64,000 nt of DNA from Amphiscolops sp. MND2022 (lineage: Eukaryota), in contig OZ076409.1 of assembly GCA_964187785.1 (NCBI GenBank), forward strand, positions 45,820,001-45,884,000, read 5' to 3'. Every line of letters starts with the position of its first letter. Position 1 is the first letter of the stretch. This document shows, piece by piece, positions 5,860-52,919 of this stretch. The translations under genes were made by a program, and so were the position numbers. Under the pieces are notes generated by a model. That model made no database searches. It had not been told where the DNA came from and saw nothing but the letters and a program-made list of their open reading frames with translations.

Positions 5860-7250
5860 GGAGACCCTGTCGTGGAGTATTATTTCTAGGTTTGACCCGA
5901 AAAAGTGATCTCGGAGCGTGGTGTACCAAGTTGGTAAGAGGTTAATCGATCGTTCGGGTTCATAAATGGGTATGTGGATTTGGGAGATTTCGTATTGATG
6001 AAGCTGGTGTTGGAGGTGAGTGAGGCATGTGTATAGAGTTTCGTGCAGGAGTGGGTGTTTATTGGAGGCTCAGGTGCACAAGATGAAGATTTGATTGTTC
6101 CAGGGTGCGGTATGGGAGTGTTTCAAGCAAATGGCAGTGCCAACCGAGGGTTTTAAGCGGAATATTGCTTCCTGTCCATCTTCGCGAACGATGTATCGAA
6201 TAGTCGCCGATTGGGATTGTAGGTCGGCGGGACAACACAACACTAATGTGCCGGAGGCTTGTAGAATGTCCGTATCAGAGTAAGTAATCCACGGCACATA
6301 GTTTGGGCGAATTTTCGGTTGCGATATGAGCCTTTTCCCACTGTCCTTTTCATGATTATCTAGAGGTTTCGATGTCAAGTGTCCAAAAATCGCTTTGCGA
6401 GCCTCCCATATTGTGCGATGCAGAGGACGGTTGCCCATGTGTATGCACGACCAGCTGTGCATGATGGAGAGTGCTTCTAGGGTGGACAAGGCCGTATCAG
6501 GTGTGTATGTTAACCGGTCTAGAATACAAATTTCCGTTTGTCGGCAGAATGTGATGGCTATCAGTTGCAGCCATTGTTGGCTCAAGAATTTTCCGCGGTA
6601 TATGTCGGCTAGATGAAAACAAAGAATGTTGCTTGTCTCCACGAGAGTGCGTAAGTTCTCTAGGCATTATAACAACATAGTCGGTGAGACCATTAAGGAA
6701 TCATCGAGGGAGGTGATCAGGAGCCACCATCCCGCGAATGTTTGATATACGTCACCCAGAGGGGAAGCGATATGATATTTGTTCCATAACTGGTTTGCGG
6801 TGATGCAGCGAATCATCAGGGGGTTGCTGCATGTGTTATCTAGTTCTCCGAACCAGAATGAGGGTGGTAGAGGGGGAATGGTTGCTGCCAATGTGAATTC
6901 AAGTCCACCTTTTTCATGGCTTGTCCATTCCTTGAAGCGATATGTTGGACAATTAGAAGGAGAGAACTTGTGCATTTCTTTCAGCGTGGTTTCTAGAGGT
7001 GGTACAAGTCCAGATTCAGTGCTGGCATAAGTTTTCTCGATGGTCAAAATTATATGTCGGATGGTTGGTGGGGCTTTGGGTTTCTGTTGTTCCGCTCGTA
7101 CAGTCAAGATTTCGTTTTGAGGGTGGTTTTGCGCTCGTGCTAGCGTGAGTTCGCGAGCCGGAATCGCCGCTACCCGGGCCAGTCGTAGATTCGGGGGTTC
7201 CGTAACAACTAGCTGGACGCAACTACAGTTTACGGGAACCACAGGTTCCG
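5860..7250 (-). pseudogene. C-terminal Pol extension with two tandem TARG1/OARD1-like macrodomains
   Basis: WITYSDTDILQASGTLVLCCPADL...KPSVGTAICL...IFILCT*ASNKHPLLHETLYTCLTHLQHQLHQYEISQIHIP...WYTTLRDHFSG parallels the OARD1 sequence pattern. A more degenerate repeat (WWLLITS...CLENLRTL...WLQLIAITF..TEICILD) precedes it. Confidence 0.65.
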
Positions 7251-12707: not shown

Positions 12708-15468
12708 CTAACTGGTTGGTATACGGAGCATACCATGCTGCCCTGACTTGTTCTTCTTGTCGGGATGTTCTGGGGCCATACATTCTGATGCGGAATGTTC
12801 AGTGCATCCGCAATTGATGCAGAAGGCAACGGTTCCTTGGATTGGCAGAGATGCTGGGTGCATTTCGTTATTCACCCCCGTGTGGTTGCGATGGGCAAGT
12901 CCAACCACCGGATGGGTTCGTGTGACATGAATTCACCTGTTGCTGCACTGGTTTTCGTGAGCGATATTTCAGTGGACAGTCGATCACAAAGTGTGGTAAG
13001 TCACCGCAGTTAAAGCATGCTCAATGGGGTTGTTGCCTATAGGGTGCCTGTTGTTGAGGTGGCACTCGCTGAGGTTGTTGCATTGGCGGTGGAATTGCCG
13101 GGGGCAATTTTGGTTGTTGGTTTGTGGCGGAGGTTGTGGTTGTTTTGAGGCTGAGGCATTTGATATTTTTCTGGACGATTGGAACCGCGCATGCGCAAGT
13201 TTTGCTGGACTATGAAGCGAAGCGCTTCTACCGTCGGTGGTGTTTCGACGTATTGTTCCTGTGCGTACATGAGGCCTAGGTTCCGTTTCAGTTCGAAATT
13301 GCGAACACCTTCGATGAATTTTTGAATAATCTCATATCTGCGAACAGTCACTTCCTCGTTGGGGTAGCCTTGGCTACGCAGAACTTCGGGGGCATCGAGG
13401 TATTTCATATAGTCCTCCTCGTTGTTCTGGTTGCGGGTCCTGAACTGTTGTTGTATGTGGATCTTACTTGACCCAGTTCCAAATCGCCGCGCTAGCAATG
13501 CAAAGACTTTTTCGTCGGTGTCTCTTTCCGCCTCGGCTTTGTTGGTGATGTAGTCTCTGGCTTCGTTTTCTAGATATTCAATGATTGTCCAGGCTTTGTC
13601 GAGGGGAGTGGCTTTGGCATGTGCCTTCTCCAAGTGACGCTTCATCAACATTATCCAGCCGTCGGCGTTGCCGTCCTTGGTTCCTCGATATTTCGTTGGT
13701 TTATTCTTCGACCCCCCTTCGCCGCTAGTAGCGGTTCCAGACCCTTGGACATTGCGGTCGAAATGGCTTCTGCCAGTGCTTGCCGTTGGCTCGTTCTTGG
13801 GGTGTCAGGGGTTACGCTTGGCGTTGCAGGAAGCTGTTCCATCTCCTCTTGGTCTTGTTCCAGGTTTCGCTTAGTGGTGATTTATCGCTGTGTACTGGTG
13901 GCCACTGGCCGTGGGACCAAGTCTAGGTACGTCTGCTTGGGAGGGTCACTACTTATGTTGGTTCTGGCGGTGTAGTAGTTTGACTCTCTTGTCGTCATTC
14001 CGCTTGCAGCAGAATAGTAATCTCCCGTTGTAGATGCACCACGAGCAAAAGGGTCGAATGATACGCTAGTTAGTGGGTCCGTACCCACGTCGCAAGATTC
14101 TGCTCGGATCACACTTGCCATCTTGCTTGTTCGTGGTTGATCTCTTTTGTAGGTTGCGGGCGGCACCAACTTCAGAGGTTTGGGTTGTTCGATGTTGGAC
14201 TGTGCTACCTTTCGGTAGGTAGCTTGCGTTGGGTGTGGGGCCGCGCTAGTCGAAGGTAAGTCCCTGGAGTGAGAGGTTACCGGCGCCGCTGGCGTCGTTT
14301 TGGTTTGGGCTGCTGCGGTTTGGGCCGCCATTGCTCTCACTCCTAGTGTTAGGTCTTTCATCGTGGTCATCAAGTCTATCATTCGAGTGTTTGAGTCATT
14401 TTCTCTGCGCTGCATGAGGTCTGACATCATTCTCATTCATTCGTCAGCTTGACAATCTCGCTCTTTCATCACGGCTGACATTTCGGCCATGCGGGTGTCT
14501 GCCATGTTTTCTCTTTGTTTTATCAAGTCATTCAGAGAGGCCATGGATGCTTCCAACCTTCCTTGATTCTGGCGTCATTCGGCCTGTATCTCCAACAGGC
14601 CCTTTCTCATGTCATCCATATCCCTCATGATGACGTCAGCTCTCATCACATGTTCGGTGTTTTCTCGGGACAGTCGTGAATGCACTTGTGAGAGTTGAGC
14701 CAAGCTGTTTCGGAAATCTTCTCTCACTGCTTGCGACTCTCTTGTTATTTTCGTAACAGTTGATTCCGGGGCTGTTTCAGCGCTAGTTCTCGAGTTAGGC
14801 GTGTAGTTTGATTTGTCAGTTCTTTTTGGAGCAAGATCTAAGCTTATTGATGGGGGTGTTCTGAAGACGTATCGCAACGGGTTGTCTTCTATTTGCGTCG
14901 ATGGATTATCATTTGGTTCAGTAGGTGCCGCTGATGGCCCTCCCTCTCGTGCGTAGTCGCTCAAAAAGGGATTTCTAGTTCCGCTGGTACCTAATGCGAG
15001 GGAACCCAGCGGGGTCTTGTTAATGGAAGGGGTGCGGGGGGCCGCCACAGGAGTTGCGTGGTTGCTACTTTGTGATGCCGTATCTTCGACTACACTTGTT
15101 TCGCATGGTGGTTTTTTATTTGTGTTTGGCCATTCCTTTAGACTGTAGTCAGTGACTTCTAGGGGTGGCCACGCATTATTTCGTGTGGTATTTCCGGTAC
15201 CATCCACTGGATTGGTACTATCGAGGGAAGCTTGCGACGAACCGAGCTGTTCGGTTGCGGCTGTCATCTCAATGTTTTGTTCCGCGTTGGAAATAAAGTC
15301 AGACATGAGTTCTGAAAATACATTTGTAATGGTTGGTTCTTGGAGATTGTCGGTAAGAGTCTCCCATCGAGTTGTGTTTTCTATCATGTTACCAAATGGA
15401 TTTGTAGCATGGAAGTTCCTGGGTACGTCCCAGTTCTTTTTGGTCAATTTTTGGCGTATGGAGCTCAA
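12708..15468 (-). pseudogene. gag: gag of element A (disrupted)
   Basis: Colinear ORF pieces 14575..15468, 13882..14436, 13651..13842 and 13037..13651 (capsid-like); zinc knuckles CFNCGDLPHFVIDC (~12965-13020) and CINCGCTEHSASEC. Confidence 0.85.
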
Positions 15469-18527: not shown

Positions 18528-19621
18528 GTTTTCAATCCATCATCCATATTTTGCATCTGGCAATGCTCTGCAGATGTTGTTGATTTCCCAAGGGGATGGC
18601 ACAACATTCCGATAATCTTTCTGCTGATGTTTCTTCATCTTCTGGCAATTCTTCATCTTTTTCTGCAACTTTTTCACACGTGCTCTGTTTCTTGCTCCCT
18701 CTCCGCGTGGTCTCTCTTTTTGTTCATTCGTTTCGTACCTGCTAGGTCGGCCATTTTGATTCTTCTATTTTGACATCGCACATTTCGAATTTTTCATCGA
18801 AATTTTGTCATGCCAGTTGCTGACGTTACATAAAAAGTTCAAGGAATCTTGACTGGGGAAGTTTGTATTTTTTCAGATATCTGTTTCTGTAGGCGTGCCC
18901 TCTAGCTCTGCTGTGTGGACAAAGGTGTGAAGTTTCAATTTAGGCTTTCTTGAGTTCTGACAACTGTGCCAATACAAAACCGGGCCATTGAAAATATTCA
19001 TCATCACCCAGGTTTTCTGTGCAGATCTGAAGGATTCTTGCAGAACTTTGCAGATATCTGCAGATTCGAAGAAAACATGACCAAATCAGAAACACTATAA
19101 AAACCCACAGGGATGTCAACCGAACAATGAAAACGCTGAGAACTCCTGCGAAACCTCACTTATGTCAAAATGATGAAATTTTTTTCCGAGGCAATCTGTA
19201 CAAATCTGTAGAGATTACAGATCTTAACAGAGCCAAGCGGTGACTAATAAATTACCAAAACGTATTCCGAGTTACCAGCAATTACTCCAACAAAGCAAGT
19301 TCCCAAAATATCACATTATCAACAATTCTGCAGATCGATCTTTGCAGAAAAAATCCAGCAGATCTTCCCAGATTCGCAAAGATCAAATCATGGGCAATGA
19401 TGATTGATTGTAAATTGAATAAATACCTATACAAAGAACCACTTGATTTTCTGTCGTCTATCTAAACTTGATTGTGTTGAACTCAACAACGTAGTGCTAC
19501 AGGCAAGTTGTCTCAGGTTCCAGTCGATCAATCATATAGAGCTGTTGGAGCAATGAGTCAGGTTCGTTTCAACAGACGTGCTGGTTCTATTTTATTTTGT
19601 GAATACGTAATTACATTACTG

Positions 19622-21577
19622 TGTCGCAGGCTGCCGCCTGTGATGGTACAAGGACCACTACTACTGCAGAAGGACAGGATATAGCGGCCGGAACTCTACC
19701 AATATATTAGAGGTAAACATTAAAAACACAAACTTTGCTAGTATTTTTTAGTCTACAAGTTGTACTTGTTATCGTTGCTGATTTTACATTTAGTATATAG
19801 TTTGCTGATATTAGTCCGTTCATGCCGACATTTGAAAGTTCAGATGATGTATTGACAATTGTAAAAGTTAGAAGTGCAGTATGAACACGCTGTTATAGCA
19901 ATAGATAGGCAGCTAGGAAGCGTAAAGGAAACGAGTTCAAGTGAACGTAACTCCAATTCCGGAGACGTCACTTGAGCTCAACCTGTTAGCCAATCATATT
20001 CATCCATTTGAGTAATAGTAGTGCTGTTTTTAATTAATGGCCGGTTTAGGCCATATGCCGGAAATTCATCTTTATTAATTGGCGCTTTAGTCAAACGGCC
20101 GGTTCCGGCCTTAATGTTCAGATGAAAGAATATTAGTGCAGACACTGCTGTGCTCCGTTAAATAGTAGTCTAATCATGTTGCTGTACTAATTAAACGTTC
20201 ATTTTAGCTAATTGGCGCTTTGTTCTATCCATTCCAATATTAGGCCGAATAAGGCCATTTGCCTGACTTCTATCCTTTGTTGCTGTTGCCAATTGGACAG
20301 TGGCCGGTTAAGGCCTCTTTTCAATACTATTATTCAGATGCCAGTTACAATCATTTAGTATATTTTAAATGTCATGTATAGTTACAAGTACGTCGTAAAG
20401 ACTCATGTAGCTCTTGAAATTAATTGATGTAATCAATACCAATGTATGATGTTGCTACCAATATTGGCCCAAAGGACATGTCTGGCCTTATTTGCTAGTT
20501 GGCACGTGGAATCTGTGTGCATATTATATAGAGGTAAATATGTGCTGTTACATGTAACATTGCTGTATACAAGTTGATCTAGCCTGCTAACGGGGCACGT
20601 GCCGACACGAGATTGTCAGCATTCCTGAAATATTAGAGGCGTAAACATTTTAATCGATGCTATTTGATGTACCGTGTGCCTTTTGAATACTTGTTAAAGA
20701 TGTCAAAACAGGAATTTGAACGGCCGCGTGACCTTACGATCACAGTTCGGCGGCACTTTGATGCTTACATAGTTGAGTTAAGTCAGGTGCTTTCGGAATG
20801 TGCTTGTAACATTTTTTGACTGTTTGCATCATGTTTATCCCGCCCGAGGAAGTATATATAGAAACAACTTCCTTCGGGTGGACACAATTTTGTTTTGCTC
20901 CTAATACTCAGTTGATAACACTTTTACGTTAACAATCACCAATTCTGTTTTCCGGTTTTAATATTTTAACTATTCAACCCGGTTTAGTCTTGATGCCTAC
21001 TACTAGGAAACAAAAGAAGACAAGGAAATCTAGAGGATTAGAGATTCTCTCTGATATTGAAAACCTTGATAAAATGTTAGGAGAGAACCATTTTAATGGT
21101 ACGAAAGAGACGAAAGTCTCGAAGGAACCTCTATCAGGAGACAAGAAAGCGTCACAAGTAATAACTTGGAAAATGAAGGACTAGATCCTTATGCCGATTA
21201 TGGAAACCATAGAGTTAGGACTAGCGCCATTCATGACCACAATTCTGCAAGCGTAGATTCTCAAGCTGAGATTAACAAGCTTTCGAGTGATTTGAACTCT
21301 AGAATGTCTAGGGAGATGGATGAGATGATGAACAGTGTCAGTTCTCAAATCCAGAGAGCCATAAATGATGCCATTAATAACCAGGTTTTACCCCAAATCC
21401 AGAACGTTGTTATGGCCGGTTCAGGACAGGAGACTAGAAGAGGATGGGAGACATCTATTAATAGACCCGAAATTCACTCTGAAATTCAACAGAATCCGAA
21501 GGCCAAAACTAACTTTAATAGTGAACATAGTGAAAATCACCGTAAAGGTGAAAGGACACAGTGTGATGTTCATGACA
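19622..21577 (+). repeat. 5' LTR of element B
   Basis: Direct repeat of 34056..36011 with only scattered differences; TATA box at ~20853. Confidence 0.97.
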
Positions 21578-21595
21578 TGGTGACAGGAGACAACG
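21578..21595 (+). promoter_or_regulatory. Probable primer-binding site (tRNA-Leu-like)
   Basis: TGGTGACAGGAG immediately follows the LTR-terminal CA and is one mismatch from the usual Leu PBS TGGTGTCAGGAG. Confidence 0.6.
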
Positions 21596-22685
21596 AATCT
21601 CCAAATCTAGTTCCTGAGTTTCTCACAGGACGTATCCCATCAAGAAGTCATCTCAATCAGTCCTATGAGGACATCAACCTCGACACGATGATCCCAGCGC
21701 ACGAGAGAATTGCTACAGTTGCCGATTCTGATCCCATTACTAGATTGGCCGACGTCTTGACTACAATGCAGAATAGACCAACGGCACAACAACTCACAAT
21801 ACGCCCAGTCAACTCCAATACCATGACGTTCGACGGCAAGAGTAAGAAATTTGAGCTGTTCGAAGATCTCTTCCATACTATGATCAAGATGCAGCCAGAG
21901 ATGACCGAACAAATGAAAATTAATCATTTTCATTCATTGTTGAGGAAAAATGCTCTCCAAACATTGAGAAACATCAATACGACAAATCGACAAACCCTCG
22001 AAGACGTACTAGTCATTTTCCGACGAAAATACGTCAAACCTGAATCACAGGCAACCGCCAAGCATAAATGGCACCGCCTGATCTTTGATCCCAATACGAT
22101 GAAACTGCATGATTTCCTGAATCAAGGGGCAGAGAAAGCGTTTGGAGACCATGCGCAGAAAATGATTGACAGCTTGCTCTACGCAAAACTGCCATCAAAA
22201 CTCAAGCGGTCCGTCAACATGGCCAGATTAGAAAATGGCTCATACGATGAGATAGTTGCTCATTTGGAGAGAGAATTAGAACTCAACGCCCTGGAGGAGT
22301 CAGACGACCTACCAATGGCCACAATGACCTCCTCATCTACAAAACCTAAAACTCCTCTGTCCACAGGGCAAATGTCCGATATCACTTGTAAATATTGCAA
22401 GGAAAAGGGCCACATGGTCAAGGACTGCGAAAAACTGAAAAAGAAAAAAGAGAAAGATGCCCAACAAGGCAAGTCGACCCAGAAGAAAACAAATCCGGAG
22501 TAAAGCACTTGTGGCAAAAAGAATCATCCCGATGAAAGATGTTGGCAAGGTGCTGGTGCACATCTTAAACCCAAACGCACTAGACCCGAAGACTCAACTG
22601 ACAAAAAGCCCAATTCAAAGGCTCAGAAACCTCAGACCAAACCGACATCATCGAGCTCCCAATCCTCATACTCTAATGATGAGTC

Positions 22686-22692
22686 AAAAAAC
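22686..22692 (+). other. -1 ribosomal frameshift slippery site A_AAA_AAC (gag to pol)
   Basis: The heptamer directly precedes the gag TAA, and the -1 frame is open into pol ORF 22791..23651. Confidence 0.8.
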
Positions 22693-25600
22693 TAACTTCG
22701 CCACGACTCCAATATAACGAATTAATATCTGTCCGACAATACATCAGATCGGACCCTCCAACGCGAACTTTCCACCAATACAATCAGCAATTGATGGACT
22801 ATCCCTCTGTTGTCTGGCAGCAACAGATGGAAAAAGCTACCATCATCACCTACAATAACACCCATTTATTTCAGAAACCAATTCCTGTTTGGGACCCTGA
22901 TTACACCACTACCTTCACTACCCGGTTCAGGCCCATTCCCCTAATCGATGATTACAATCCGACATACATCGATCCAGACTACGGCAGAGATCCCTACTGG
23001 GACACCGAGCTTTACAACCAAGATTCGCTGCAATTTCAATATGTCCTGGACGATATTGACCATTACAGTAGAACAGTCCACGAAAATCCTCCAATTACCC
23101 ATAACAAGAAAACACGAGCGCTAATCAAAAACTGGCAAATGAATGATGGCACAAACCATCCAGTGTTCCCAAACCCATTGGGGACCGAGAATCCTGAAAA
23201 CAGTGGTGAAACCACGCCACAATCATTACTAGACGAAAAACAATTCCAAAACGTACTCATCACCAAAGATGGTGAACCAGACTGTATACCCCTGTCAACC
23301 AACATCAACCTCAAATGCAAGAAACGCATGCTTTATTTCCCAATGGACTTTGGGGAATTGACCATTGATGGATTATTAGACACTGGGGCACTGTCCAGTG
23401 CAATCCCTGAAATGGACCTCCGGAAAATTCGTCTTCTATCTCCACAATCTGTTATCCGAGAAGGTCCGCCTCCAAACTTCCAAATCATGGTCGCTAATGG
23501 GCAACTGGAAACTCCTAAGAGTACCATAAAGCTCAAATTCGAAGTTGGTGACATTGAGTTCCATGAAATCTTTATAGTAATGGAACATTTGACAGGACCG
23601 ATCATTGGACTAATGTTCCTTCAAAGAAATCATACAGTGCTGGAGACATGAGACAAGGAATCCTGAATTTCCCGTTCTTTTCAATGCAGCTTAAAACAGC
23701 TGACCACAAATACTCCAATGTTTTAGAACCGATTCTCAACCCCACTGAAATAACAATTCCGCCAAATGACAGAGTCCTAATTAGGACCAATTCCTTACTG
23801 TATCCTGAGAATGCGGTTACCGGAATTTTGCAACCGAGCGACCTTCTACATGAAGAAGGCGACATCACATTTTGCCCAGCCTTGGTCACTCTGAATGATG
23901 GCAATATAACGATACCAGTGAACAACTTCACAGACCACCCTTACAAACTCAAAAAGGGACTTCACATTGCCAATTTCTCAGTCATGACGCCAGAACAAAT
24001 GAAATATGTCAAACCAATAGATCCGGCATCAACCTGGCACCTTTTGCAAAACGACCAAGAACAAGCGGCCCATTATATCGGCAGTCTCATCAAGACAAAC
24101 AGAAATCCTCAAAATTCTGAAAATTACTGGTTCCCAACTCCAGAAAACCCTGGACACCCCGAGGAACACACACCTATCCAGAAAGGAATCCTACGCAAGT
24201 TACCGGCCTTACAGGACCTGGAGACACTCGACCCCACTACAGATGCAGAATCGCGTGCAAAATTCCTAGAAAACTTTGACTGGAAAGATTCCACCCTTAC
24301 TCCTGAAGAAAAGGAGAAAATTGAGGAATTGTTAGTGGAATTCCATGACATCTTTGCACGACACTGATTTGATATAGGCATGAACGAGGAATTCAAGGTG
24401 AAATTAACGCCTAAGGACGATTCCCCAGCCTATAGTCAAAGCCTTCCAGCTCCTATCAACTTGAAGGAGGACATCCTAGTTGAATTAGCCATGTTACACA
24501 AATATGGCATAATAACTACACTACCATTTTCGAAATATGCGAGTCCAATATTTGCACAAAAGAAACCGAATGGGAAACTCCGACTCTTGGTTGACTTGAG
24601 GAAAATCAACAACCTCATCTCGGATGATTATATCAACAATAATCACCCCGTCAGTACACTAGTTGATGCTGCCCAACACTTGGCAGGCAAAAAAACTGTT
24701 TTGTAAATTAGACTGTTCGCAGGCATACCTTTGCCTACCAATGGCCGACCAACGCTCAATCGAAATGTTGGCTTTCAATTTTGCCAGTCGCACATTCGCT
24801 TACAGACGTTTAGCACAAGGCCTTTGTCGGTCACTATCCGCTTTCTCGTGTTTCATGAGGGAATACCTCGACAAAGTCATTAAAGCGGATCAGTGTGCCC
24901 AGTATGTGGACGATATCGGCATCGCAGCCAATGATGCTGACCATCTCATAACGAACCTGAGAGCTACGTTCAAATGCATTCAGGAAGCAGGCCTTAAGTT
25001 AACAATGCACAAATGTCACTTCGGTGCAAAAGAAATTGATTTTCTCGGACGGACTATTACCCCCACAAGGCGTCAAACCCCAGAAACAGAATGTGCAAAA
25101 CTTTATCGAAAAAACCAAATTCCCGAAGTCGAAAAAGGCTTTGCAACGCTACTTGGGATTCTTGAACTACTACAGAAATTATGTCCCAAGACTTTCAGAA
25201 CGCCTTGCTCCATTCTACAAGATGCTCAAAAGTGACGAAAAAGTCCTAGTATCGAAAGAATTAGTCCAACAATTCGAAGAAATCAATAGAGCACTAGACA
25301 AATGTTGCGACTTGGCCCTACAGCAACCCATTCCGAACAAGCAAATAGCACTAATGTCTGATGCAAGTTTTGGTGCAGCCGGGTACGCGGTCCTAATTGA
25401 AGACGACCCAAGCCAGAAATTTACATCACTCAGAAAATCATATGCACCAGTCGCATATGGATCAAAAACTTTCACCCCAGCCCAGATCAAGTTGTCAATT
25501 TATGCCAAGTAATTCCTTGCAATTTATTTTGCATTCAAAGAATTTGGCCATATCTTCTGGGGAGCGCCCAAACCAGTCATTATCTTAACTGACAACAAAG

Positions 25601-27899
25601 CTGTAACACGATTTTTCCAAACGAAAATAATACCCCCAGCACTGTGGAACGCATGTGACTATGTTATCCAGTTCAATTTTGTCATTGCGCACATCCCGGG
25701 GGCACAAAATACAGCTGCCGACTATTTGTCCCGATTGGAAGCAAATCCGAAGGACAACCTGGTGATGAAAATTCGCGAAGATGTACAAACACTGCCAATC
25801 GAAATCAATGTCCAATCCGCAGGGGTGTCACAAGAAGAACAAATCTTCTACACCAACGACGACGATGAGACAGAGGAACAGTATTGGGCAAGAAAAGAAG
25901 CAATCAAGAAAAATCCAGCAACTGATGAACCCACTGTTACCAAACAAACTCTGTCAACAAATCTGGTCAAGCAACACCCCGATATCCAAGTCCGATTAAG
26001 GAAAACGAACCAGATCATTATTGAGCAATCCAAAGATGCAGTATTACAACAATTGAAGGCAAAACTCCTTCATGAAGATTATTCAGAAGACATACTGCAA
26101 CAGGATGCCCGATACAGACACTATGCAAAAATTCTGGAACGAATTGTACTAAAGGATGAAATCCTGACAAGGCAATATTTTGATGAAACAGGGAATGTTA
26201 AATACCATCAAATTTTGCTCCCGCAACACTTACTCCAGGACTTGCTCCAATCTCTTCACAGGACAGCGCATAAACATCCTGCGATTTCAAAAATGCTGCA
26301 GGAAATTCGACAGAGGTATTACCACCCTAACATGGCTAAACATGTCAAAAAGTGGGTAGAAGGGTGCGAACAATGTGCCAGAGACAAAAGAGTCCCTAAC
26401 GCAACAATTACACCTGAACTACTCAACTTGCCCGAATGGGACCTTGGACCTGAAGACGCCATGCAAATTGACCTATTGCCGAATCTCCCCCCAAGTGGTG
26501 GGTATGAAAACGTCTTATCAGCAATCGATGTATTTTCCAGATATCTGTTGGCCTATCCCCTTACGGACGCATCAGCGATCAATGTAGCAAAAGCGCTCAT
26601 TGACATCATGACTAAACACTCATATCTACCAACGACTCTTATCACTGATAAAGGTACTGCATTTACTTCTACAATTATTGCGGAGGTTACGCAGATTCTG
26701 GGCATCACACTCAAATGTGCCACGACAAAACACCCGCAGACAATTGGGAAATTGGAGCGAACTCATGCCTCATTGAAAACAAATCTCAAAATGGCATGTG
26801 AGGAATATCGCCGACAATGGCACAAATACTTGCCATTAGCAGTACTGAATCATAATACTAGTTATCACGCCAGCATCGGTTGTGAGCCGACGAGAGTATT
26901 TCACGGAAGAATTCCATTCAATATCTTGGACCACTAGCTTGGAAATAATCCTAACGAGCAGATCAACCCCACAACCGAATTTGCTGAAGAAATCCAAAAC
27001 CGGACAAAAATCCTGATTGACAAAACGAAGCAAACATTATGCAGTCGTATATCAAGTACAAAGAATTTTATGACCGCAAAGCGAAAGCCGCTCCACTAAA
27101 GGAGAACGAATACTGTTTTGTCTTACAGCCGAAAGCGGATAATCAAGGATCAAAAATTCCATTCCGCGATTACCGTTGGGTTGGACCATTTGTAGTCCAA
27201 AAAGTTTTGCCAAATGAAAACTATATAGTACGACGGATTAACACGAACAGAACTCAAATTTTGCATCGGATCCGTCTTAAAAAGTTTGTCCTCAATCAAC
27301 CGCTTGAAGACAATTTCCGAGAACAACGGTTGCAGCCAGACGAAGAAATTGTCATTCCGCAAGATGATTTATATATCATAACGTGGGAAACCGAATTTGG
27401 CGAGCAGCTAGTTACACAAGGAAGCGAGACTATTCCGACTAGCACGCCGAATGGCGAACGGCCGAATGCGGCAGAAACGAATACAAATGACGTAACCGAG
27501 AATGAAGCGGATTACATAATCACGCGAGAAGTAACGAACAACGGCAATGCAGCGCAAAGCCGGAATGACCGCTTAAATGATGACGTCACTGAAAGAAATG
27601 AATCTACTGCAGTCACAGAAAATGAAGAATCTGATTGGCCGAATCCGACCGTTTCCCCAAAAAACCAAGAAAAATCATTGCCGAATACGGCAGATAGACT
27701 GAAAAACGATGAAAATTTTTCAGAAAGAAACTTGACGAATGAAAACGATACACAAAATTCTCCAAACAGGGGGGATGATATTATCGTGCCCGAAATATCT
27801 GAAAACGATGCTAGAAATGAAAGTCTGAGCCCTAGAGGAGGAAAATATAACCTCAGGCCTAACCCCAACCCAAACTACTCAGAAGACTTCAGATACTAA
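22692..27899 (+). pseudogene. pol: pol of element B (protease, dUTPase-like spacer, RT, RNase H, integrase, GPF motif, acidic tail); several stops and frameshifts
   Basis: LLDTGA; QYVDDIGI; SDASF; H..H..C..C and IDLL/ITDKG/ERTH integrase motifs; WVGPFVV. Confidence 0.95.
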
Positions 27900-28126
27900 G
27901 AATTGAATTTCTTCCCGAAAATGGGAATTCTCTTCTATTCATTCCTTTTATCCTTTTTCTGGCCCCTCAAAGTATCTTTTGCAATAAATAATTGGGGCAT
28001 TACAAATGATCCCTTACAAAGAAATAAATATGGGATCAAGGCAACAACGAACAAAATGAATATAAATACGAAACAGAAAATGAACAAAGCATACAGTCTA
28101 CAAGTACATGAATACATATGTACACA

Positions 28127-31100
28127 TTAGTTCTTAGAAGATCCCTGGACAAGTTTCTTGGAGGCAGACGAGATAGTGGAATTACTGCTGCCCATTCTTT
28201 TCCGTTGTGTCCGGGAAGGAAACTTTACGGCAGAGTCATCCGGCACGGAAGAGGCAGTTCCTTTCCCCAGACGAACAGCCCGAGTGGGGGAAACAGCAGT
28301 GACGGTCTTATAGGAGGCAAGAAGGCTCTTGTAGATCTTGGACCTACCGAACTCATCCACAAAGGTCCATTGATCGTAATCGGGGGAGAAAGCTGAACGC
28401 TCGAAGGAAGAACTGAGAGCTGAGAACTTTTCTAAATTGGCATCAGAGCAACAATACGAAATGGAATCAGGCACGCAAGAAAGGTAACTCTGACAGGGCA
28501 CTACCAGGTCAGCAAAACGGCGTCGGTGTCCAGATGTGTCAACACTCCCAATTGATACTGGAGGATATTGGGGACTTTGACCTGTCAGACACAAGCAGCA
28601 CAGCTTGAAGAGATGAAAAATGTGCTCATGAGTTTGAAAAAACTCGAGCCGCATCAGGAAGTCTATGAGGTCACTGGAATTTTCCAGAGATCAAAATCTG
28701 GAGGATAATTGACCCGCAGGTGATCCAACAAAGCCAAATACTCATCTCGACAGATGTTCTCATTCTCACTGGAGACCCAAGAACGAAGCTGAAAGGTCGA
28801 ATGTAGCACCTCAAAATGCCGGAGTCCGACCTCTGTCGGCCTTTTGAAGAGGACAAAAGGGTCAAAGGCGGTGAACCCCTTGATCACCTCGGAACTCAGG
28901 CCGGCTTGGTTGAGAACCTGCTTAATCAGGTACTGAATGAAGTGCAGTCCCTCTTTGACAAAACTGCTGGTTGTTTCTGCAGCTGTCTTATCAATGCAGC
29001 GGCCTTCTCGGATTTTTTGTTCAGATGAACAACATCAGCACACTGTTTGCTGGCAGTAGCTATCCGATTCGTCAATCGGTGCCGGATAAGGAAATCGTCC
29101 TCACTGATGAATTTTCCTTCGCTCACGTTGAAATTAAGGAGAAGGAACCACGAATTCTCGAGAGGGATGGTCTCTGGAAAGTAGCATCTGGCACATAGCT
29201 TGGAGACGGAGCGACAGACTTCTCCACAGAGGAAAAATGATGCATCTCGTCGGCCCTGCAGATTGACAACGAAACTGGAAACATCTGGAAATACAACGGA
29301 CAAGATCATGAAAGGAACAAAATGTTCGCGTGAACCCATGACAACATGCCTACTATGTTAGTAGTCCAAAGAATCAAGGATCAAGGACCGTCCAGATAAT
29401 GCCTTAAAGTATCGATATGGACATGTGGCGGTATACTCACAATCACTGATTATGCGTTGGAAGAGCTCCAACTTGACGACGAAGAAAGAGTCGCAGATAA
29501 GAGACCACTCGAAACTCTGCACTTGATTGTGGACCCCCTGCATTCCTTGATGTGGAGTGTGTGATGTCAAGTACTGCCTGACTGCCTTCCAATGTTTCAC
29601 GAGTTCCCGGCAGAGATTGGGTAAACTCGACAAGTCCAGTTTGCAGGTATCAATGGCCTAAATGGACCCAAAATGCCTTTTGCCCGTACCTACCCCCTAA
29701 CCCTTTGCGCCTTAGGTTTGGACTTGAAATACTAACTTGTGCTAGCTCAGGGGATTGCAGGACCCAGTCCTCGCCAGTAGCTGCCCCAAGTGAAACCATG
29801 AGGCATTTCAGAACAGAGAAAAAGTCTATTCTGCCAAACACACTGTAAGTTGGCTTGTGCATCATCTTCTGAAGTTGCAGGTGTTCGAAGCGAAAACAAC
29901 TCTGGACAGCCCGAGGGAAGAAAGCATTATGGTCGATAGTCTGGATCAGCTCCACTGGACATCCTGAGCAAGCAACTATATCGGCCTTGGTGGACACTAC
30001 TGAAAGAAGTCTGGAAAGAGACCCCAACTCCCCAGTGAGATCAGTGGAAGGAAGCCCACTTCGGCACACGTAGATTCGACAGAGAGTGTCGCCCTTCCAG
30101 AATTTGACAGACATGAGTCTGTTCACGCCCTCATCCTCAAACTCGATGGCAAAGTGCTGTGTGGTAGCAATCTGCTCCGCTAAATCACTCATTGCACAAT
30201 TGAAAATGTGCTGGAAGATGGCCTGGAAAGGAAAAGGAGGATTACGAAATGTGTGGAGGACTTTGGCCTCCCTCAAGCAGTACGCAAACTCAAAAGAGAA
30301 CTTACCGAAATTCTTTCCTCGCCCCAATAGATGTCGCAGTAGCTGATCTGGTAGTTGGTCAAAGAGCTTATTTGGGACCACAATTTGCGGAGCATTCCAA
30401 TATCTCCAAGTTGTTGTACGAAGTCCCCGATGAGATGGATCTGCGTCTTGGCCCTTGATTCAGGGGTGACAAGTGTGGTCGACGTACCTTTTATGAAATC
30501 ATCGTAAAAGGGGAAGCGTTCTCCGATGTCCACCAGCTCGACGTGCATGAAGTGGCGCCTCTCCTTTGCCAACTCTATCTCCGAGAGGATCTTCCCATTA
30601 CGGCCTCTCACTCGATGTTGCACCTTTCCAGACACGGAGTGGACGCTTTTAAGGTGCTCGTAGCGCCATCTTTGATCCCGTCTGAGGTGCTTCTCAGTAC
30701 TGTGGTGTCGCAAGATTTCTAAATTCCCCCTAGTCTTCACGGAGATATTCTTTTTGCATATATGGCACCACACCATATATGGATTGTGAAGGGGATCTGC
30801 TGGTCCGGAAATGAATGAGCGCGTCCAACCGATCTTAGAGAAGAACCCTCTCTCATAGGAACACCTCGAGTCTGCTTGCGTCGCTTCCTTTTGGGCGCTT
30901 TACCCGAACTTGAGGCCAAAGGCGGGGCGGGAGAAGTTTGAATCCGCAGCTCAGAAAGAGTGGCATCAAGGCTTGACTGCTCCGTAGATTCAAAGCCTGC
31001 TTGGGAAGGATCATCTTGTGTAACCTTACGAGGAGTAGAAGCAGGTCTGAAAGGCTCCTTGAAAGCCTGTGAGATGAGCGCCATCTCGCCAGAACTATCA

Positions 31101-32310
31101 GTATCGTTGAAGGAGTCCAGCCCTCTGTCTTCTTGCCCTGAACTCGATCCAGCAGACGTATCGGTTCCCGATTCAGGGAAATTTTCAGTGCGCGAGCTGT
31201 CTTCAGAATCACTGTGCAGACCAGGTCCTGGAGTTTGGGCTCTTGGCCTGACACGGAATTGATCAGTTCGGGAACTGGAAGTGACCGGAGCTCCGCGAAC
31301 TGCCCCAATCACCATCTGTTCCATGGCAGTAAAGGACATTTTCAACGTCTCATCAGTAAGAACTCTCAAAAGATGATATACTTGTGGCTCAGTGAAAGCC
31401 ACTGTTCTATGGCCGAGAGGGAAGTTGATGGTGGAGGCATCCTCATCAAAGTACTGTTTCAAAATGGCCCGGCTGCGGCCAGAGAGCTCCCTGACTTTGG
31501 AATCTTTCCCTGTAGATGTTGACGGACGCATGACATCGGGACGATGGATGGAAGTATCAACTGATGATTCTTCTGCAGTTTCAGTCGCATTTCCTACTGG
31601 TTGGAAGTTGTATAGGGCAGGTCCACTTGCCTGGCTGGATGTGTCACCGGCTTCCTCAGTGCCAGTCACGTCGTCCAAATATATCACATCCGTGACTCCT
31701 GTTGGCAGTTTGGGGGCATCACATACAGAGGAACTCTCATCAGTCTCATGCTGAAGGAATGACGCTGCTGACACGTTGGCAGAAGTTCCACAAGTTGTCA
31801 ACAACTCTAGCAATGCCGTCAGAGAGGAGGGAGCAATCGTTAGACCAGCTTCTAGCTGTGTTAAGTTCAGCCCTGCAGACTCACTGGGCAAGTTCTTGGT
31901 TGGAGTGCTGGTTTGGAAAAACAATGTAGAATTTTGGGGTTCAATCCCAGCAGCAAGCTGGCATTCTCTTCAATCTCCTGTTCCCTGATTTCAGAATCCT
32001 TGGCAACTTGTCCCTCTTCCTGTTCCTGGACTTGCTCAAGAAAGAGAACTTTCTCATCTGCATACGCAGTAACGTCAACGTTACTGTCAAGACAGCTAGG
32101 CGACCTTGGAGGTCTTGTTGGAGGGAAGGGTGGAGGCGATGGTTGCGGCCTACGGACAACGTTGGACACTCCTGCAGAAGTAGTACTCAGGACACGCTCA
32201 CTGGGAATATCTGCTGATGTGTTGGCTTGGACTTGAGGATCATCTCCTGGCTGATTTGCTAAACAAAAAGAGATGAAATTTGGCGGTGAGCTTCCTTGAA
32301 AGAAATCCAT
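28127..32310 (-). pseudogene. Antisense spliced accessory gene of element B (~1300 aa): disordered N-terminus, NLS, BED/TTF-like zinc finger, degenerate hAT-transposase-like body
   Basis: Seven colinear ORF pieces; phase-0 GT-AG introns at 30223..30305 and 29658..29736 restore the frame; WCHICKKNISVKTRGNLEILRHHSTEKH; KAPKRKRRK. Confidence 0.75.
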
Positions 32311-33358
32311 TTCACCGCATTAGAAAACTTCCGGAAGTGTTTGAAAATTTGAATGAAAAACGTTATCACGTGTTCATTGACGGAAACAGGAAGCACTTTG
32401 TGAACAAATTTGACCCTGATTAAGTTAGATTTAGTTCAAAAATAAAACAAACCAACTTTCAGACGAAGACATTCTGGGGCAAGACTGATTGTAGGGAATG
32501 AGTCCTTGTTCGACTGAAATGGATAGGGGAACTTGGCCGAGTCCGGCTGAAGAAGGAGATCTGGGATACTCTGAAGAGTAGAGCTGACGGAAGAAGAAGT
32601 GGACGTACAAGGATGAATCTCAGTTGGGAGGATACAAATAAAAGAAACAGATGTAGAGTAATCAGAAATGGAATTGGATTGGAATTTTAATGTAAAAGAA
32701 TTGAAGAATTGGAGTTCGTGGCTGAAGATTATTACCAGACTAATATTATGGATTATGTACATATTTATTTTGTACATGGAGTCTGCCAGCGAAGTGTACA
32801 AAGAACTTTGTTATTTACAGCTTATTTAGTTAGAGGCCGGTTATGGCCGTTTGCCCTGTTTTGTTTAGCCGTTTCGTCCAGTTACCCTAGTTACCCTTAA
32901 CTAGAATTTTCGCCATTTTGAGTTATTTGGATTTAATATTTTCGCCATTTTATTATTTAATCTTACAACTTATCGAAGCTTAATGCTGATTGGCTGAAGC
33001 CTTTTTGAAAGAATTCCGCGTCGCGTGTCGTTAATTGCCATCAGGCAAACAGTTAATTACCCACTTGAAACGGGTGAAGATAATATTTACAACTCAAGCG
33101 TCATCAACACCTCTCAGAGTGATGGTGTTGATAGGGGGTAAACACTGAGTTATCAAAGGAAGCCGACTAATTATAAAATTCCATTCAGGAATGTTTACGT
33201 CGGATCAGGGCGATTTACCGATAACTCGTCCGCCAAAACGAATTGCCGGGAAAAGGCCCGAGTCGACTAAATTTTTGAGTTGGTAAATTCATTCCACTTT
33301 GAAATCTCACTCAAGCTAGTTAAATTCTCCAGTCAGCAAAATTGCTAAGAAACTCATA

Positions 33359-34144
33359 ATGCAAAGATATAACCTAACTAAAAAGCTCTTTGATCTTGAA
33401 GAAGACTCAGAAAGCTAAGTGGATTCAGTGATCTACATCTCAAGTGACAGTGAGAATGAAGTCTCAAGTTCCTGGGACTCGGACTGGTCCACGGATACAG
33501 AAGAGATCATAGAAAGAATAGAACGAGAGGTGAAAGCTGCTCCAATCCCTATAGCGGGACGCGCAATGACGACAGAAGATTTAGACGATGAGATGACAGC
33601 TGGACCAAGCAGTGCTTGGCCTGTTCCGCCCTCTACCCCTAAACTGGGATTCGAGTATTTTAACAAGGAAATGTGATTGGCTCCATCGAAAAAGCAAAGA
33701 AAATCAAAAGTCGAGCTCTGTGCAACTGTATTACCCGTTCTGGAGTCCCCACTGTCTCCTCCCGACCATGAAAGGGGACCGAGCATTGACACCCCTCTTG
33801 TGCAGTCAACCTCTGGAACTTTCTATGCGTCCTATCATGTGCAAAATACCGAGCCTTATCAGGACATGAGCCAAAATTTGCACACAGGCTGTATGGTATG
33901 CGGCAAATCGAGAGATCAAATAAAAGCAGAAAAGGTGATCTGGTACATGCAAAGATCGACACCTAGCAGTGAGCCCGCTTATATCACCGCCCTACGACGA
34001 GAGGCTTATGAAAATGGCTTGAACGCAGGAAGCTTACTTTTTCTAACACCCGCAGTGTCGCAGGCTGCCGCCTGTGATGGTACAAGGATCACTACTACCG
34101 CAGAAGGACAGGATATAGCGGCCGGAACTCTACCAATATACTAG
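33359..34144 (+). pseudogene. Small sense accessory ORF (~260 aa, two in-frame stops) ending inside the 3' LTR
   Basis: ATG at 33359 is in frame with ORFs 33419..33676 and 33677..34144; VIYISSDSE motif, PSKKQRKSK and CMVC. Confidence 0.65.
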
Positions 34145-36011
34145 AGGTAAACATTAAAAACACAAACTTTGCTATCATTTTTTAGTCTACAAGTTGTACT
34201 TGTTATCGTTGTTGACTTTACATTTAGTATATAGTTTGCTGATATTAGTCCGTTCATGCCAACATTTGAAAGTTCAGATGATGTATTGACAATTGTAAAA
34301 GTTAGAAGTGCAGTATGAACATGCTGTTATAGCAATAGATAGGCAGCTAGGAAGCGTAAAGGAAACGAGTTCAAGTGAACGTAACTCCAATTCCGGAGAC
34401 GTCACTTGAGCTCAACCTGTTAGCCAATCATATTCATCCATTTGAGTAATAGTAGTGCTGTTTTTAATTAATGGCCGGTTTAGGCCATATGCCGGAAATT
34501 CATCTTTATTAATTGGCGCTTTAGTTAAACGGCCGGTTCCGGCCTTAATGTTCAGATGAAAGAATATTAGTGCAGACACTGCTGTGCTCCGTTAAATAGT
34601 AGTCTAATCATGTTGCTGTACTAATTAAACGTTCATTTTAGCTAATTGGCGCTTTGTTCTATCCATTCCAATATTAGGCCGAATAAGGCCATTTGCCTGA
34701 CTTCTATCCTTTGTTGCTGTGGCCAATTGGACAGTGGCCGGTTAAGGCCTCTTTTCAATACTATTATTCAGATGCCAGTTACAATCATTTAGTATATTTT
34801 AAATGTCATGTATAGTTACAAGTACGTCGTAAAGACTCATGTAGCTCTTGAAATTAATTGATGTAATCAATACCAATGTATGATGTTGCTACCAATATTG
34901 GCCCAAAGGACATGTCTGGCCTTATTTGCTAGTTGGCACGTGGAATCTGTGTGCATATTATATAGAGGTAAATATGTGCTGTTACATGTAACATTGCTGT
35001 ATACAAGTTGATCTAGCCTGCTAACGGGGCACGTGCCGACACGAGATTGTCAGCATTCTTGAAATATTAGAGGCGTAAACATTTTAATCGATGCTATTTG
35101 ATGTACCGTGTGCCTTTTGAATACTTGTTAAAGATGTCAAAACAGGAATTTGAACGGCCGCGTGACCTTACGATCACAGTTCGGCGGCACTTTGATGCTT
35201 ACATAGTTGAGTTAAGTCAGGTGCTTTCGGAACGTGCTTGTAACATTTTTTGACTGTTTGCATCATGTTTATCCCGTCCGAGGAAGTATATATAGAAGCA
35301 ACTTCCTTCGGGTGGACACATTTTTGTTTTGCTCCTAATACTCAGTTGATAACACTTTTACGTTAACAATCACCAATTCTGTTTTCCGGTTTTAATAATT
35401 TAACTATTCAACCCGGTTTAGTCTTGATGCCTACTACTAAGAAACAAAAGAAGACAAGGAAATCTAGAGGATTAGAGATTCTCTCTGATATTGAAAACCT
35501 TGATATAATGTTAGGAGAGAACCATTTTAATGGAACCGAAAGAGACGAAAGTCTCGAAGGAACCTCTATCAGGAGACAAGAAAGCGTCACAAGTAATAAC
35601 TTGGAAAATGAAGGACTAGATCCTTATGCCGATTATGGAAACCATAGAGTTAGGACTAGTGCCATTTAGACCAGAATTCTGCAAGCGTAGATTCTCAAGC
35701 TGAGATTAACAAGCTTTCGAGTGAGTTGAACTCTAGAATGTCTAGGGAGATGGATGAGATGATGAACAGTGTCAGTTCTCAAATCCAGAGAGCCATAAAT
35801 GATGCCATTAATAACCAGGTTTTACCCCAAATCCAGAACGTTGTTATGGCCGGTTCAGGACAGAAGACTAGAAGAGGATGGGAGACATCTATTGATAGAC
35901 CGGAAATTCACTCTGAAATTCAACAGAATCCGAAGGCCAAAACTAACTTTAATAGTGAACATAGTGAAAATCACCGTAAAGGTGAAAGGACACAGTGTGA
36001 TGTTCATGACA
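34056..36011 (+). repeat. 3' LTR of element B
   Basis: Direct repeat of 19622..21577, followed by TSD TACTG. Confidence 0.97.
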
Positions 36012-36884
36012 TACTGTGATTTGGAAATCATCCGCCGGGCGACTTAAAGCTTGACTTTTTTCGAAATCAATTGAAAATTTTGAACAACGTCAGAAGTGAA
36101 AGTTTCTTCGAAATTCTCTGTTTCTCATTAGTATTTGGATTGAATTTCTGAGACCAAAATTAAGAAAGTTACAAATAGCTAATTTTTAGCAAAATTTGGA
36201 CATTTTTCTTTTTCCCATTTTTCTGTTTTACCTACAGCTTTGTGGCACGTTTTATGCTCAATCAACTTCAGAATGTTTCTGAAACAAAAAATAAATCATT
36301 GAAATCTTAACAATCTGCAGAATCCGATGAAATTAACGTTTTAAGAAAAAAGTTCGAAGACCTACTAAAATCTGGGAAATTAACTGATATGTTCTTCCTG
36401 CGCCTGAGTTTTCACTTGATGCGCCAATCAATATTGAAAGTGAGAGCAATTACGCTAAATTATTAATTGGTTGATAACGACGCTCAGCGCACAGGGGTAT
36501 GATTTCCTATTCACAGTACTGTGCTGTAACAAATAATATTGAACAGTGATTATGCGTCCTTTTTGAGTACAATTTACTAATACATTACGATAAAACATTG
36601 TGAAACGGGAACCGTTTAGTGGTCCCAGCACCTCTCAGTGACGTTACTGGTAAATGCCTTTAGTCTTGTTTTGTTGAGTATTGTGACCAACAATGATCCC
36701 AAAGTTTGAAAGGTGTTCCTTGAGGGTATTTGATGTTCTTTCATGTATCCATTATACGATGAGAAGGTTGCTGATTGATGTTGTAATATACCTCTCCACT
36801 TAAAGTTTAGCTGCTTAGTATTATAATACCACTTGATTGCCTTTCCAGAAGACATGCTTTGTTGACATATTCACTGTAACTTTA

Positions 36885-50329: not shown

Positions 50330-51060
50330 TGACATGAGTGCTCTCTAGGTCTTCATTCCTGTTTGAGACCCTAGAAACTCATCTCTTGAGTTGCTTCTGA
50401 ATCTGCGTTCTAAGGCTTCTTCAGATCTGTACCCCTGTCCTCTAACCGGAGCCTCCCATCTTCTCTCGGGCCCCTGTCCTTGTCTGGATCTTAATGTAGC
50501 CTGAATCTGAGGCAGTATTTGATCACTTTTTGTTTGCCTCATTTATAGCTCTTTCAATCTGGGAACTCACAGTACTCAAAAAAACTCCCATCTCTTTAGG
50601 ATTTCTTTGATTTAATTCTCCTGACAGCCTATTGAATTCACTGCTAGAATCTGTTTCCGTCAGGCTTTGGCCATTTTGGGCATAATTTCTAATCTCGCCT
50701 TCGCGTTAGCTAGAGTGTGAATCAGTATTCTAATTCATTGAAGCATCATGACACGGACTATCAGGCTTTCTGCCAAAGTTACTAGACTCGCTTTCCCTCT
50801 CTCTAAGTTATTTCCTCCTAACTTTTTGTCATGATTCTCAATGTCAGATAACATATCTGACTCTCTAGACTTTCTCGCTTCCTTTTGCTTCCTTGTGGTA
50901 GACATCAAGAAAATCCAATAGTAAATAGTAAATTATTCGAATCGGAAAAATTAATTCCGACAGAGATTCACAACAGGTTTACACTCAATGAAGGTCGTGA
51001 TAAATTTTCAGCTCCGGGCAGTAAGAGCTATATATACTCCCTCCAGCAGGACACTGACTT
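50330..51060 (-). repeat. Old LTR relic related to element B, carrying the gag N-terminus
   Basis: Minus strand encodes MSTTRKQKEARKSRESDMLSDIENHDKKLG and QILPQIQ; TATATA at ~51030; similarity ends at an LTR-end-like sequence near 50330. Confidence 0.8.
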
Positions 51061-52919
51061 TTTTTCATGATTGGATAAACAAAGCCACCTTCCAAGTTTT
51101 ACATGTACAGAAGAACACACAAACATCAAAGCTACTTCTTTGGAAAGCGCCTGATTAGGACATAAGTCCCATGATAGCGTGACAAAGGAGTGAAAGATAG
51201 TTTGACACGTGACATTATAAACTTTTCTTGGGTGAAACAACAAAACAGTAATAAATGTCAACAACGCATCAAAGAATCATCCTGCACTAAGAATTACAGG
51301 AATGTGAACATTCCTTTGCAAGCACGTGCCTACGCACGCAGGCTGAATATTTGTTTGAAATAATAAATTTAGTACTGTGACCTTTATTTTTTCATGTTAA
51401 AATATCTACTTCATGGTGGCCAGAAAACGCTTTCGGACTAAAATCTGGACCTGACATTTCTGTCAGAAAGGTTCCAAGAGCCAATACATCATATGTTCAG
51501 CTTCGATAGGCAACAGATCATCGTTATTTTTATTGAATACTTATGTGCATGAAAAAAACATTAAGTACTTTCAGATCAAAAGCACATCATTATTGGTTAA
51601 GTAAAGCGTTCCGCATAAATAAGACAAGTATTGGCCGGAGTCGGCCGTTTGACTTGCGTCACATGAGTCGCAGCTTCATTTGGCCAAATGGTTGTAACCG
51701 GCATAATAAAATAATACTGCATAGCAACAAAGTATTTGTATAAATCTGATTGGTTGATTTTTGAACTGAACTCAACGCTGCCGTGAGAAACGTTTCCGCA
51801 TTTGAACACATTTCCTTTCCGCTGATTAATTGCCTACAATTTTTATTAGCTCTTTCAAAACACTTTACATACATCGTAACTTCAATAGGTTCGCCCTCTT
51901 GATTTGAATACCTCAAATCGTAATATTTTACCAGACTAATCTAAATAATCGAATCTAACAACGATATACGAAGGTAGCAACATCTGAAATGAAAAGTTTT
52001 CTTATTAAAGTAAAGAGTTTTTGTTTTGTTGAGTGTTGGGCAGAGTTCCAGGTGCGATTTCTTGCCCAGTTGTTGTCGTCGTTGTCGTTGTCCCGTCATA
52101 GGCGGCAGCCTGCGACACATCCTGTTAATCATATTTAGTTTTTGTTACTGAGCAGTGTTAAAATATAATGAAACAAGACGCCCGCTAAGCATCGGGATAT
52201 TTTCCTCTTAAAACGTAACGCATTATCACGGATTCGAACCCACGACCTCAAATCTGCCAGGTGACTTGATGGAGTTACTAAATGTGTGTTACTAAATGTA
52301 GTAAATGTGTGTTACTAAATTTTGCCGTGTTACTAATTGGAGAAATAAAGTGGAGTTTCAGTAGAATTTGTAAAAAAACGCAACACAGGTTATGATTTTC
52401 CTCCGCCATTATATGTGGGCAGAAAATAATAATAAAGTTAATCTTCTGATGTGGGTTCGGTTGTTGGTTGAAAAACATTAATCATCATGAACCTTAGACA
52501 TTTTCCGCTTGCAAAATTGTGCTAGAAAGGCTTTTCGCTTGAAGGTTTCACATAAGGAAGAATGTACCATATGGTTGACATTATGTAGTCTCTGCGTTTA
52601 TAATCGCTTAAATTCAATTATAATCAAAGACCGCATTGTATGAAACATATCTTTAAAAGAAGACGTTCCCTCCAAACTGCAAACTTTGTATCCCTCCTCG
52701 CTTGCATTGTTAAAAAGATTATTTTTTACCTCAATATTCCAAACATAACTGTAACTTTTGGGCATCAAGATTATAAAAAACTACGGAAATATTGTTTTTT
52801 CCTTCTTGAACTTCCAAACTCTTCGTTGTTGAAAACTTCCAATTTCCTCCCATCCAGTTGCTTGAACTTAGAATAAACAGTTTTCTGATTAAGCAGTTTT
52901 TCAAGTAGGAGTGCGCCAG

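Follow-up and report, generated by a model that had tools for sequence, protein, structure and literature searches.

An LTR that appears to encode the front of Gag in a gypsy-like retrotransposon of Amphiscolops sp. MND2022

The window analysed here, a 64-kb stretch of genomic DNA (64,000 nucleotides) from Amphiscolops sp. MND2022, contains a gypsy-like LTR retrotransposon of 16.4 kb on the forward strand (19622-36011), the features of which are collected in Table 1. The LTR pair has TG...CA ends and is flanked by a short target-site duplication, as in Ty3/gypsy elements (Metaviridae), and inside the element gag and pol are followed by antisense ORF pieces over approximately 4 kb and then by ORF3 in the sense direction. 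The 5′ and 3′ LTRs differ by 27 substitutions over 1957 aligned columns. In addition, each LTR has one single-base gap, located near 21101 in the 5′ LTR and, in the 3′ LTR, near 35668; these gaps bear out the distinct 1-nt deletions reported in the preliminary description of this DNA. As read, this copy of the element is dead, its frame breaks being due to decay or sequencing error. Elsewhere in the window there is a solo LTR, diverged and belonging to a related subfamily, which has a TATA box, an ATG at 50905 and a frameshifted gag N-terminal frame. An Rfam search of 19600-36100 was without match, and no tRNA genes were found within the window.

Table 1. Features of the element and of the solo LTR, in window coordinates
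Feature	Coordinates	Strand	Remarks
Left target-site duplication TACTG	19617..19621	+	Same 5 bases at 36012-36016
5′ LTR	19622..21577	+	1956 bp, TGTC...GACA
LTR start, apparent copy of the 29 final ORF3 codons	19622..19710	+	tblastn of ORF3 relatives matches 19621-19707
TATA-like box	20853..20860	+	Sole TATATATA in the LTR; kept in the diverged solo LTR
ATG-free leader	20861..20992	+	First ATG 140 nt past TATA box start
Putative LTR-coded gag codons 1-195	20993..21577	+	Basic tip, variable linker, long helix, variable linker
Helix codons	21253..21417	+	P0001 residues 88-142, placed by tblastn; predicted parallel trimeric coiled coil
Internal gag	21577..22695	+	Capsid-like region, two CCHC-type knuckles; tblastn to 22692
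PBS-like site TGGTGACAGGAG	21578..21589	+	Adjoins LTR end; read as M-V-T-G
pol	22683..27899	+	-1 frame; protease, RT, RNase H, integrase; six pieces in this copy
Antisense ORF pieces	28127..32319	-	Up to 410 aa; candidate family members
ORF3	33359..34144	+	Ends 29 codons inside 3′ LTR; premature stops 33416-33418, 33674-33676
3′ LTR	34056..36011	+	1956 bp, TGTC...GACA; gag-frame ATG 35427, break near 35668
Right target-site duplication TACTG	36012..36016	+	Perfect 5-bp match to left copy
Diverged solo LTR, related subfamily	50330..52117	-	1788 bp; flanks GGATG/GGATT; same ends

Other repeats are present in the window. A second, unrelated and decayed gypsy-like element occupies 533-15468 on the reverse strand and holds a 2.0-kb tandem duplication (1407-3424 / 3420-5436). 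Further tandem repeats are found at 43660-46438 (a 1.39-kb duplication, 98%) and at 52909-54885 (1.0 kb, 74%), together with a 1-kb repeat pair at 37529-38496 and 47062-48060 (76%). At 48246-48460 there is a 107-bp inverted repeat, perfect and with 1 nt between its arms, which could stem from a read or assembly artefact.

The internal part of gag gave Pfam matches to DUF1759 (E=2e-06) and zf-CCHC (E=0.0016); the capsid-like region starts near residue 245-280, and gag is interrupted in this copy by a premature stop at 22501-22503. In a Foldseek search with a model of the full Gag (mean pLDDT 45.5) there was no match with E <=0.001, and the top four hits were retroelement capsids, all weak (best E=0.08). 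The gag and pol frames overlap at 22683-22695 in a -1 relation, with an A-AAA-AAC heptamer just upstream of the gag stop that is likely to be a ribosomal frameshift site. Pfam matches along pol follow the order gag-asp_proteas, RVT_1, RT_RNaseH_2, Integrase_H2C2, rve and Integrase_p58_C, those to protease, RNase H and p58 falling below the Pfam cut-off. Integrase therefore comes after RT/RNase H, which is the gypsy order, and not before RT as in Ty1/copia elements (Pseudoviridae). An RT search returned weak matches to foamy virus Pol, an 'enzymatic polyprotein' and Ty3. DUF1759 is common in BEL/Pao elements; no Pao-type RNase H family was present among the pol Pfam matches. Moreover, the gag frame begins before the PBS and reads through it, which is the Ty1-type layout. 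Judged on these features, the element is gypsy-like and is assigned to no named clade. A weak dUTPase match (E=0.046) lies at 23567-24367, between protease and RT, as in bdelloid LTR families. A Pfam search of the antisense ORF pieces gave no match below E=0.04; one of them (30273-30899) has a C-x2-C...H-like stretch, and the region 32320-33358 may be a divergent promoter region.

The frame that opens at ATG 20993 extends for 585 nt to the LTR end and crosses the LTR/PBS junction as D-M-V-T-G. The ATG at this junction (21577) is composed of the final base of the LTR (A) and TG from the PBS, TGGTGACAGG following with zero spacer. The PBS-like site begins with TGG directly at the LTR end, and its peptide is conserved in relatives. 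In this copy, the 5′ LTR frame from 20993 meets a stop at 21184 and the 3′ LTR frame from 35427 meets one at 35669, and the downstream frame piece of the 3′ LTR extends just two codons beyond the LTR. A Gag protein search retrieved 2568 relatives of 257-819 aa, and the best 120 were analysed. Among these 120, 94 start at the Met of the N-terminus that ATG 20993 opens and 116 carry the LTR/PBS junction in frame, the other four having a one-residue variant of it; the junction Met is residue 196 in 74 and residue 190 in 14. The observation in the preliminary description, that the gag frame starts 585 nt inside the LTR and reads through the LTR end and the PBS, is thus confirmed by the boundaries, the frame and 116/120 relatives. 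Since the relatives were retrieved with a Gag protein query and their starts were assigned by a gene caller, such counts are biased to open frames, and selection is therefore the stronger evidence.

Comparison of the LTR gag frame with the solo LTR covered 130 codons in three ungapped blocks and found 43, 46 and 78 differences at codon positions 1, 2 and 3, respectively, an excess at third positions with a binomial p of 2e-4. The corresponding pS was 0.80 and pN 0.34, for a single sequence pair with blocks picked via protein alignment and with dS saturated, and the two alternative frames over the same columns gave dN/dS values of 0.68-1.44 in six tests. Between the gag frames of the 5′ and 3′ LTRs there are eight changes, with a ratio of 0.72, too few to inform. 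The solo LTR comparison shows the codon signature of purifying selection on the LTR gag frame, contrary to the refuting outcome named at the outset, an LTR ORF free of such selection. On this signature, the description of both the attachment site and the PBS as protein-coding stands, as does that of U5 if taken to mean the 3′ third of the LTR, the label 'U5' itself remaining putative.

The TATA-like box of the LTR is likely to be the promoter. ATG 20993 is the first ATG downstream of it, and in the solo LTR the corresponding distance from TATA box start to first ATG is 131 nt. ATG-free windows of 130 nt accounted for 113/1100 of those in U3 of the element LTR, and ATG-free windows of 125 nt for 0/955 in the solo LTR. 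No AATAAA was found downstream of the TATA box in the LTR. Transcription would start approximately 30 nt past the TATA box of the 5′ LTR, ribosomes would take the first ATG, at 20993, and translation would continue, along a frame that is itself observed, past the attachment site and the PBS and on to the capsid and nucleocapsid regions.

The depth of this layout was assessed with a profile search of 50% representatives, which gave 2303 matches; the best 150 were taken and 147 of these were new. A capsid match together with at least 90 residues upstream of an FDGK-type motif qualified 23 of the 147, with capsid identities of 51-94%. A junction of H/D/N-M-V-T-G type is present in 16 of the 23, compared with 1.3% in shuffles, and six junction-bearing distant representatives combine a basic N-terminus with a stretch of 114-189 residues ahead of the junction. 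Immediately before the junction Met, the distant representatives have H (7), D (6) or N (3), which is compatible with an LTR ending in ACA, the LTR ends of these relatives being deduced from the peptide motif and not from DNA. These data suggest that the LTR-coded gag layout is old in the clade. With respect to DNA of the relatives, a metagenome scan gave one short locus without an LTR, prokaryote genomes gave one weak match (29%) and none was found in viral contigs. One protein, P0422, has three tandem in-frame junction-like motifs at residues 189-230, suggesting repeated LTR-end/PBS units.

The remaining seven of the 23 representatives are without the junction motif and three of these seven start at that Met, so that 3/23 have a gene-called start there. 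Together with the presence of an ATG at the junction, this could indicate that Gag begins at the PBS Met, the LTR frame being kept for promoter or RNA structure or representing a separate upstream ORF. However, the junction ATG is forced by CA followed by TGG, and its use would require skipping the 16-17 further ATGs that separate it from ATG 20993. Moreover, no stop lies between the two ATGs in intact relatives, and the third-position bias is confined to the gag frame. A start at the PBS Met is consequently regarded as highly unlikely, and initiation at ATG 20993 is preferred.

Conservation of the protein predicted from the LTR block was profiled in 50 full-length relatives hand-picked from the best 120. 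Identity was 0.93 at residues 1-30, approximately 0.5 at 31-89, approximately 0.82 at 90-150 and 0.39 at 166-191, with 0.97 in capsid, a pattern of two apparently constrained blocks joined by linkers. The sole gap in the LTR-coded part among the 50 relatives is in-frame and spans six residues. Residues 1-14 form a basic tip with 5-8 K/R in 93/93 close relatives. AlphaFold2 modelling of the relative P0001 predicted a single helix at residues 88-142 (block pLDDT 61-78), the rest of residues 1-250 being mostly of low confidence. When residues 82-150 of P0001 were folded in three copies, a parallel bundle was obtained with a score of 0.77, against 0.02 for the best of three controls, and the runs shared at least 85% of contacts with pLDDT of at least 82. 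The mark set for this score was reached by 21/30 solved homodimers and 0/23 single chains, and in eukaryotes by 17/29 homodimers and 0/30 single chains, in a calibration that used two copies where the helix job used three and in which coiled coils may pass by likeness. The modelling supports, but does not show, self-association of the LTR-coded helix, predicted as a homotrimer. An amphipathic helix was no better than shuffles in 3/9 N-termini (8-20 of 100), and an Atlas search with residues 1-195 gave no match at or above 0.9. A loose export-signal pattern occurs at residues 13-34 in 90/93 close relatives, as against 0-24% of control windows. A Rev/Rex-like shuttle role was set aside, the pattern being missing in 7/14 more distant N-termini, and is kept as a lead only. 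With a probability of roughly 85%, the last 585 bases of the LTR are gag codons 1-195 under purifying selection and likely encode the front of Gag, with a basic tip and a predicted trimeric coiled coil.

The opposite end of the LTR is also coding, via ORF3, as judged from codon patterns and relatives, a feature that the preliminary description overlooked. ORF3 is a conserved orphan gene of approximately 260 aa with an acidic serine-rich start and a conserved C-x2-C; it has no Pfam match, and its best Atlas match, at 0.86, is below 0.9. There are 187 relatives, mostly of 256-262 aa among the best matches. The junction motif is present in 110 of the best 120 of these 187, and 93 of the 110 end 29 residues later; the residues over the ORF3/LTR junction are invariant in 30 aligned relatives. 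Over 27 codons, the ORF3 end and the solo LTR have 3, 4 and 15 differences at the three codon positions (pS 0.59, pN 0.15). The polypurine tract that is canonical before the 3′ LTR of Metaviridae is absent from the expected site (34036..34055, +), where 7/20 bases are purines and the DNA is coding for ORF3. The stretch 34030-34055 is pyrimidine-rich, with CAG directly at the LTR start, and resembles a splice acceptor.

Intact 3′ and solo LTRs contain predicted ORFs of 195 LTR codons followed by flank. With a single LTR-only product as query, 916 relatives (108-347 aa) were retrieved, and among the best 120 of these 91 exit at the junction, 12 run into gag and 17 are without the junction. In 83/91 read-outs the family sequence ends at residue 195 or residue 189. 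The first tail residue has an A-initial codon in 88/91 non-gag tails, compared with 41% later in the tails, and the LTR end is therefore independently confirmed, its last A opening the next codon. The odd layout and the absent polypurine tract could by themselves suggest that the LTR boundary is misplaced and that the repeat is a local duplication including part of gag. Because of the perfect 5-bp target-site duplication, which accompanies TG...CA ends, and of the exit of 83/91 read-outs at one or other of these two residues, this suggestion is refuted and scarcely credible; moreover, the solo LTR shares the ends. The LTR boundaries of Table 1 are accordingly retained.

It had also been proposed that every 3′ or solo LTR is a cassette of promoter, ATG and ORF that reads out into flanking host DNA. 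The anatomy of such a cassette is real, but 'every' is too broad, as the 3′ LTR and the solo LTR of the window are frameshifted. In mammals, host genes obtain a promoter, first exon and AUG from MT LTRs (PMC5538554), and the cassette could by analogy be a source of host fusion genes. The tails, however, appear random: their median is 17 residues (longest 81, with 12/91 reaching 50), against a median of 14 in null tails, of which 10.6% reach 50. In 13 non-representative read-out members the median tail was 12. One pair of true tails alone is related (96% over 24 residues); a second pair thought to be related was discarded as gag continuation. No long host frame was found among the 91 tails, which come from unspliced predicted products of up to 347 aa in total. 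As the tails are of random length, the earlier suggestion of host coding gain is unsupported, and host fusion is considered distinctly improbable. The fold of 121 nt around the 3′ LTR junction was no better than shuffles (z=0.17).

In reverse transcription, R-U5 of both new LTRs derives from the RNA 5′ end and U3 from the 3′ end. Selection on Gag would thus maintain both LTR copies of the coding block, just as selection on ORF3 would keep the LTR start coding; both LTRs would stay coding because the translated RNA end templates both daughter copies. The 3′ and solo cassettes are probably a by-product, since replication copies the block and no cassette function is needed. The expected product of such a cassette, if expressed, would be the front of Gag without capsid, followed by a short random extension. 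It is conceivable, though doubtful, that this product is functional, co-assembling with full Gag and limiting particles in a form of copy-number control that rises with LTR number, and this reading is compatible with the main explanation. The 916 relatives, with 91 of the best 120 consisting of LTR block plus flank tail, are consistent with it, as are the predicted self-association of the helix (0.77, best control 0.02) and the restriction of Ty1 by truncated Gags (PMC10951436, PMC4551931). Nevertheless, both cassettes in the window are broken, the product is without the capsid C-terminal domain used by the yeast restriction factors, as these are described there, and replication suffices to explain the cassette. 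The by-product explanation is therefore favoured.

In Ty1, the ATG lies inside the LTR, about a dozen codons before the LTR end. The statement that gag normally begins downstream of the PBS was overstated, Ty1, with its PBS inside the GAG ORF (PMC4974528) and a 53-nt 5′ UTR (PMC3592414), being a known exception. Ty1 and the gypsy-like element share a PBS within the gag frame. They differ in that the latter has integrase after RNase H, 195 LTR codons with a whole predicted domain and a second coding LTR end. Cer1, a Ty3/gypsy element of C. elegans, has an LTR of 491-492 bp and a 5′ UTR that extends to at least position 1175 (PMC10309623). A comparable coil is predicted at the N-terminus of Cer1 Gag, but it is coded downstream of the LTR (PMC10309623). 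MT/MaLR LTRs likewise contain a promoter and start codon and can read into host DNA (PMC5538554); they operate through a splice donor and host co-option, whereas the LTR described here carries the front of the element's own gag, with no host fusion among the read-outs analysed. Ty1 p22/p18 and DRT2 are, like the LTR product, truncated Gags from element sequence (PMC10951436, PMC4551931), but they correspond to the C-terminal part of capsid, while the LTR product is an N-terminal coil ending at residue 195. Extra ORFs after pol, both sense and antisense, are common (PMC7264820, PMC5408684). ORF3 differs in crossing the expected polypurine tract into the LTR, an overlap not described in the available parts of those two papers, and the available part of PMC3601003 contains nothing on coding LTRs. 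A phrase search of open-access literature, a method by which much is missed, Repbase entries and supplements included, turned up no gypsy element whose LTR codes for a long front part of Gag. The layout appears to be a new, much larger form of the Ty1-type design; the idea of a PBS within gag is already known, and for its size here, its gypsy-like setting and the coding of both LTR ends no precedent was found in the open-access literature search.

Annotation tools and LTR-divergence dating take LTRs as non-coding. In this family, approximately a third of the LTR (585 + 89 of 1956 bases) would be coding and under selection in active lineages, in a clade that spans down to approximately 51% capsid identity, and the integrase ends and the primer site would carry a second, protein-level constraint. 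The layout thereby provides a natural setting in which to test if a dominant-negative piece of Gag can be made from solo LTRs. A bolder and rather unlikely extension is that the clade as a whole moved a complete Gag domain into the LTR, that intact 3′ and solo LTRs make a capsid-less trimeric assembly poison and that plus-strand priming is independent of a polypurine tract. If this were true, the element would possess a copy-number brake that becomes stronger with each insertion and survives LTR-LTR recombination, and both attachment sites would be coding.
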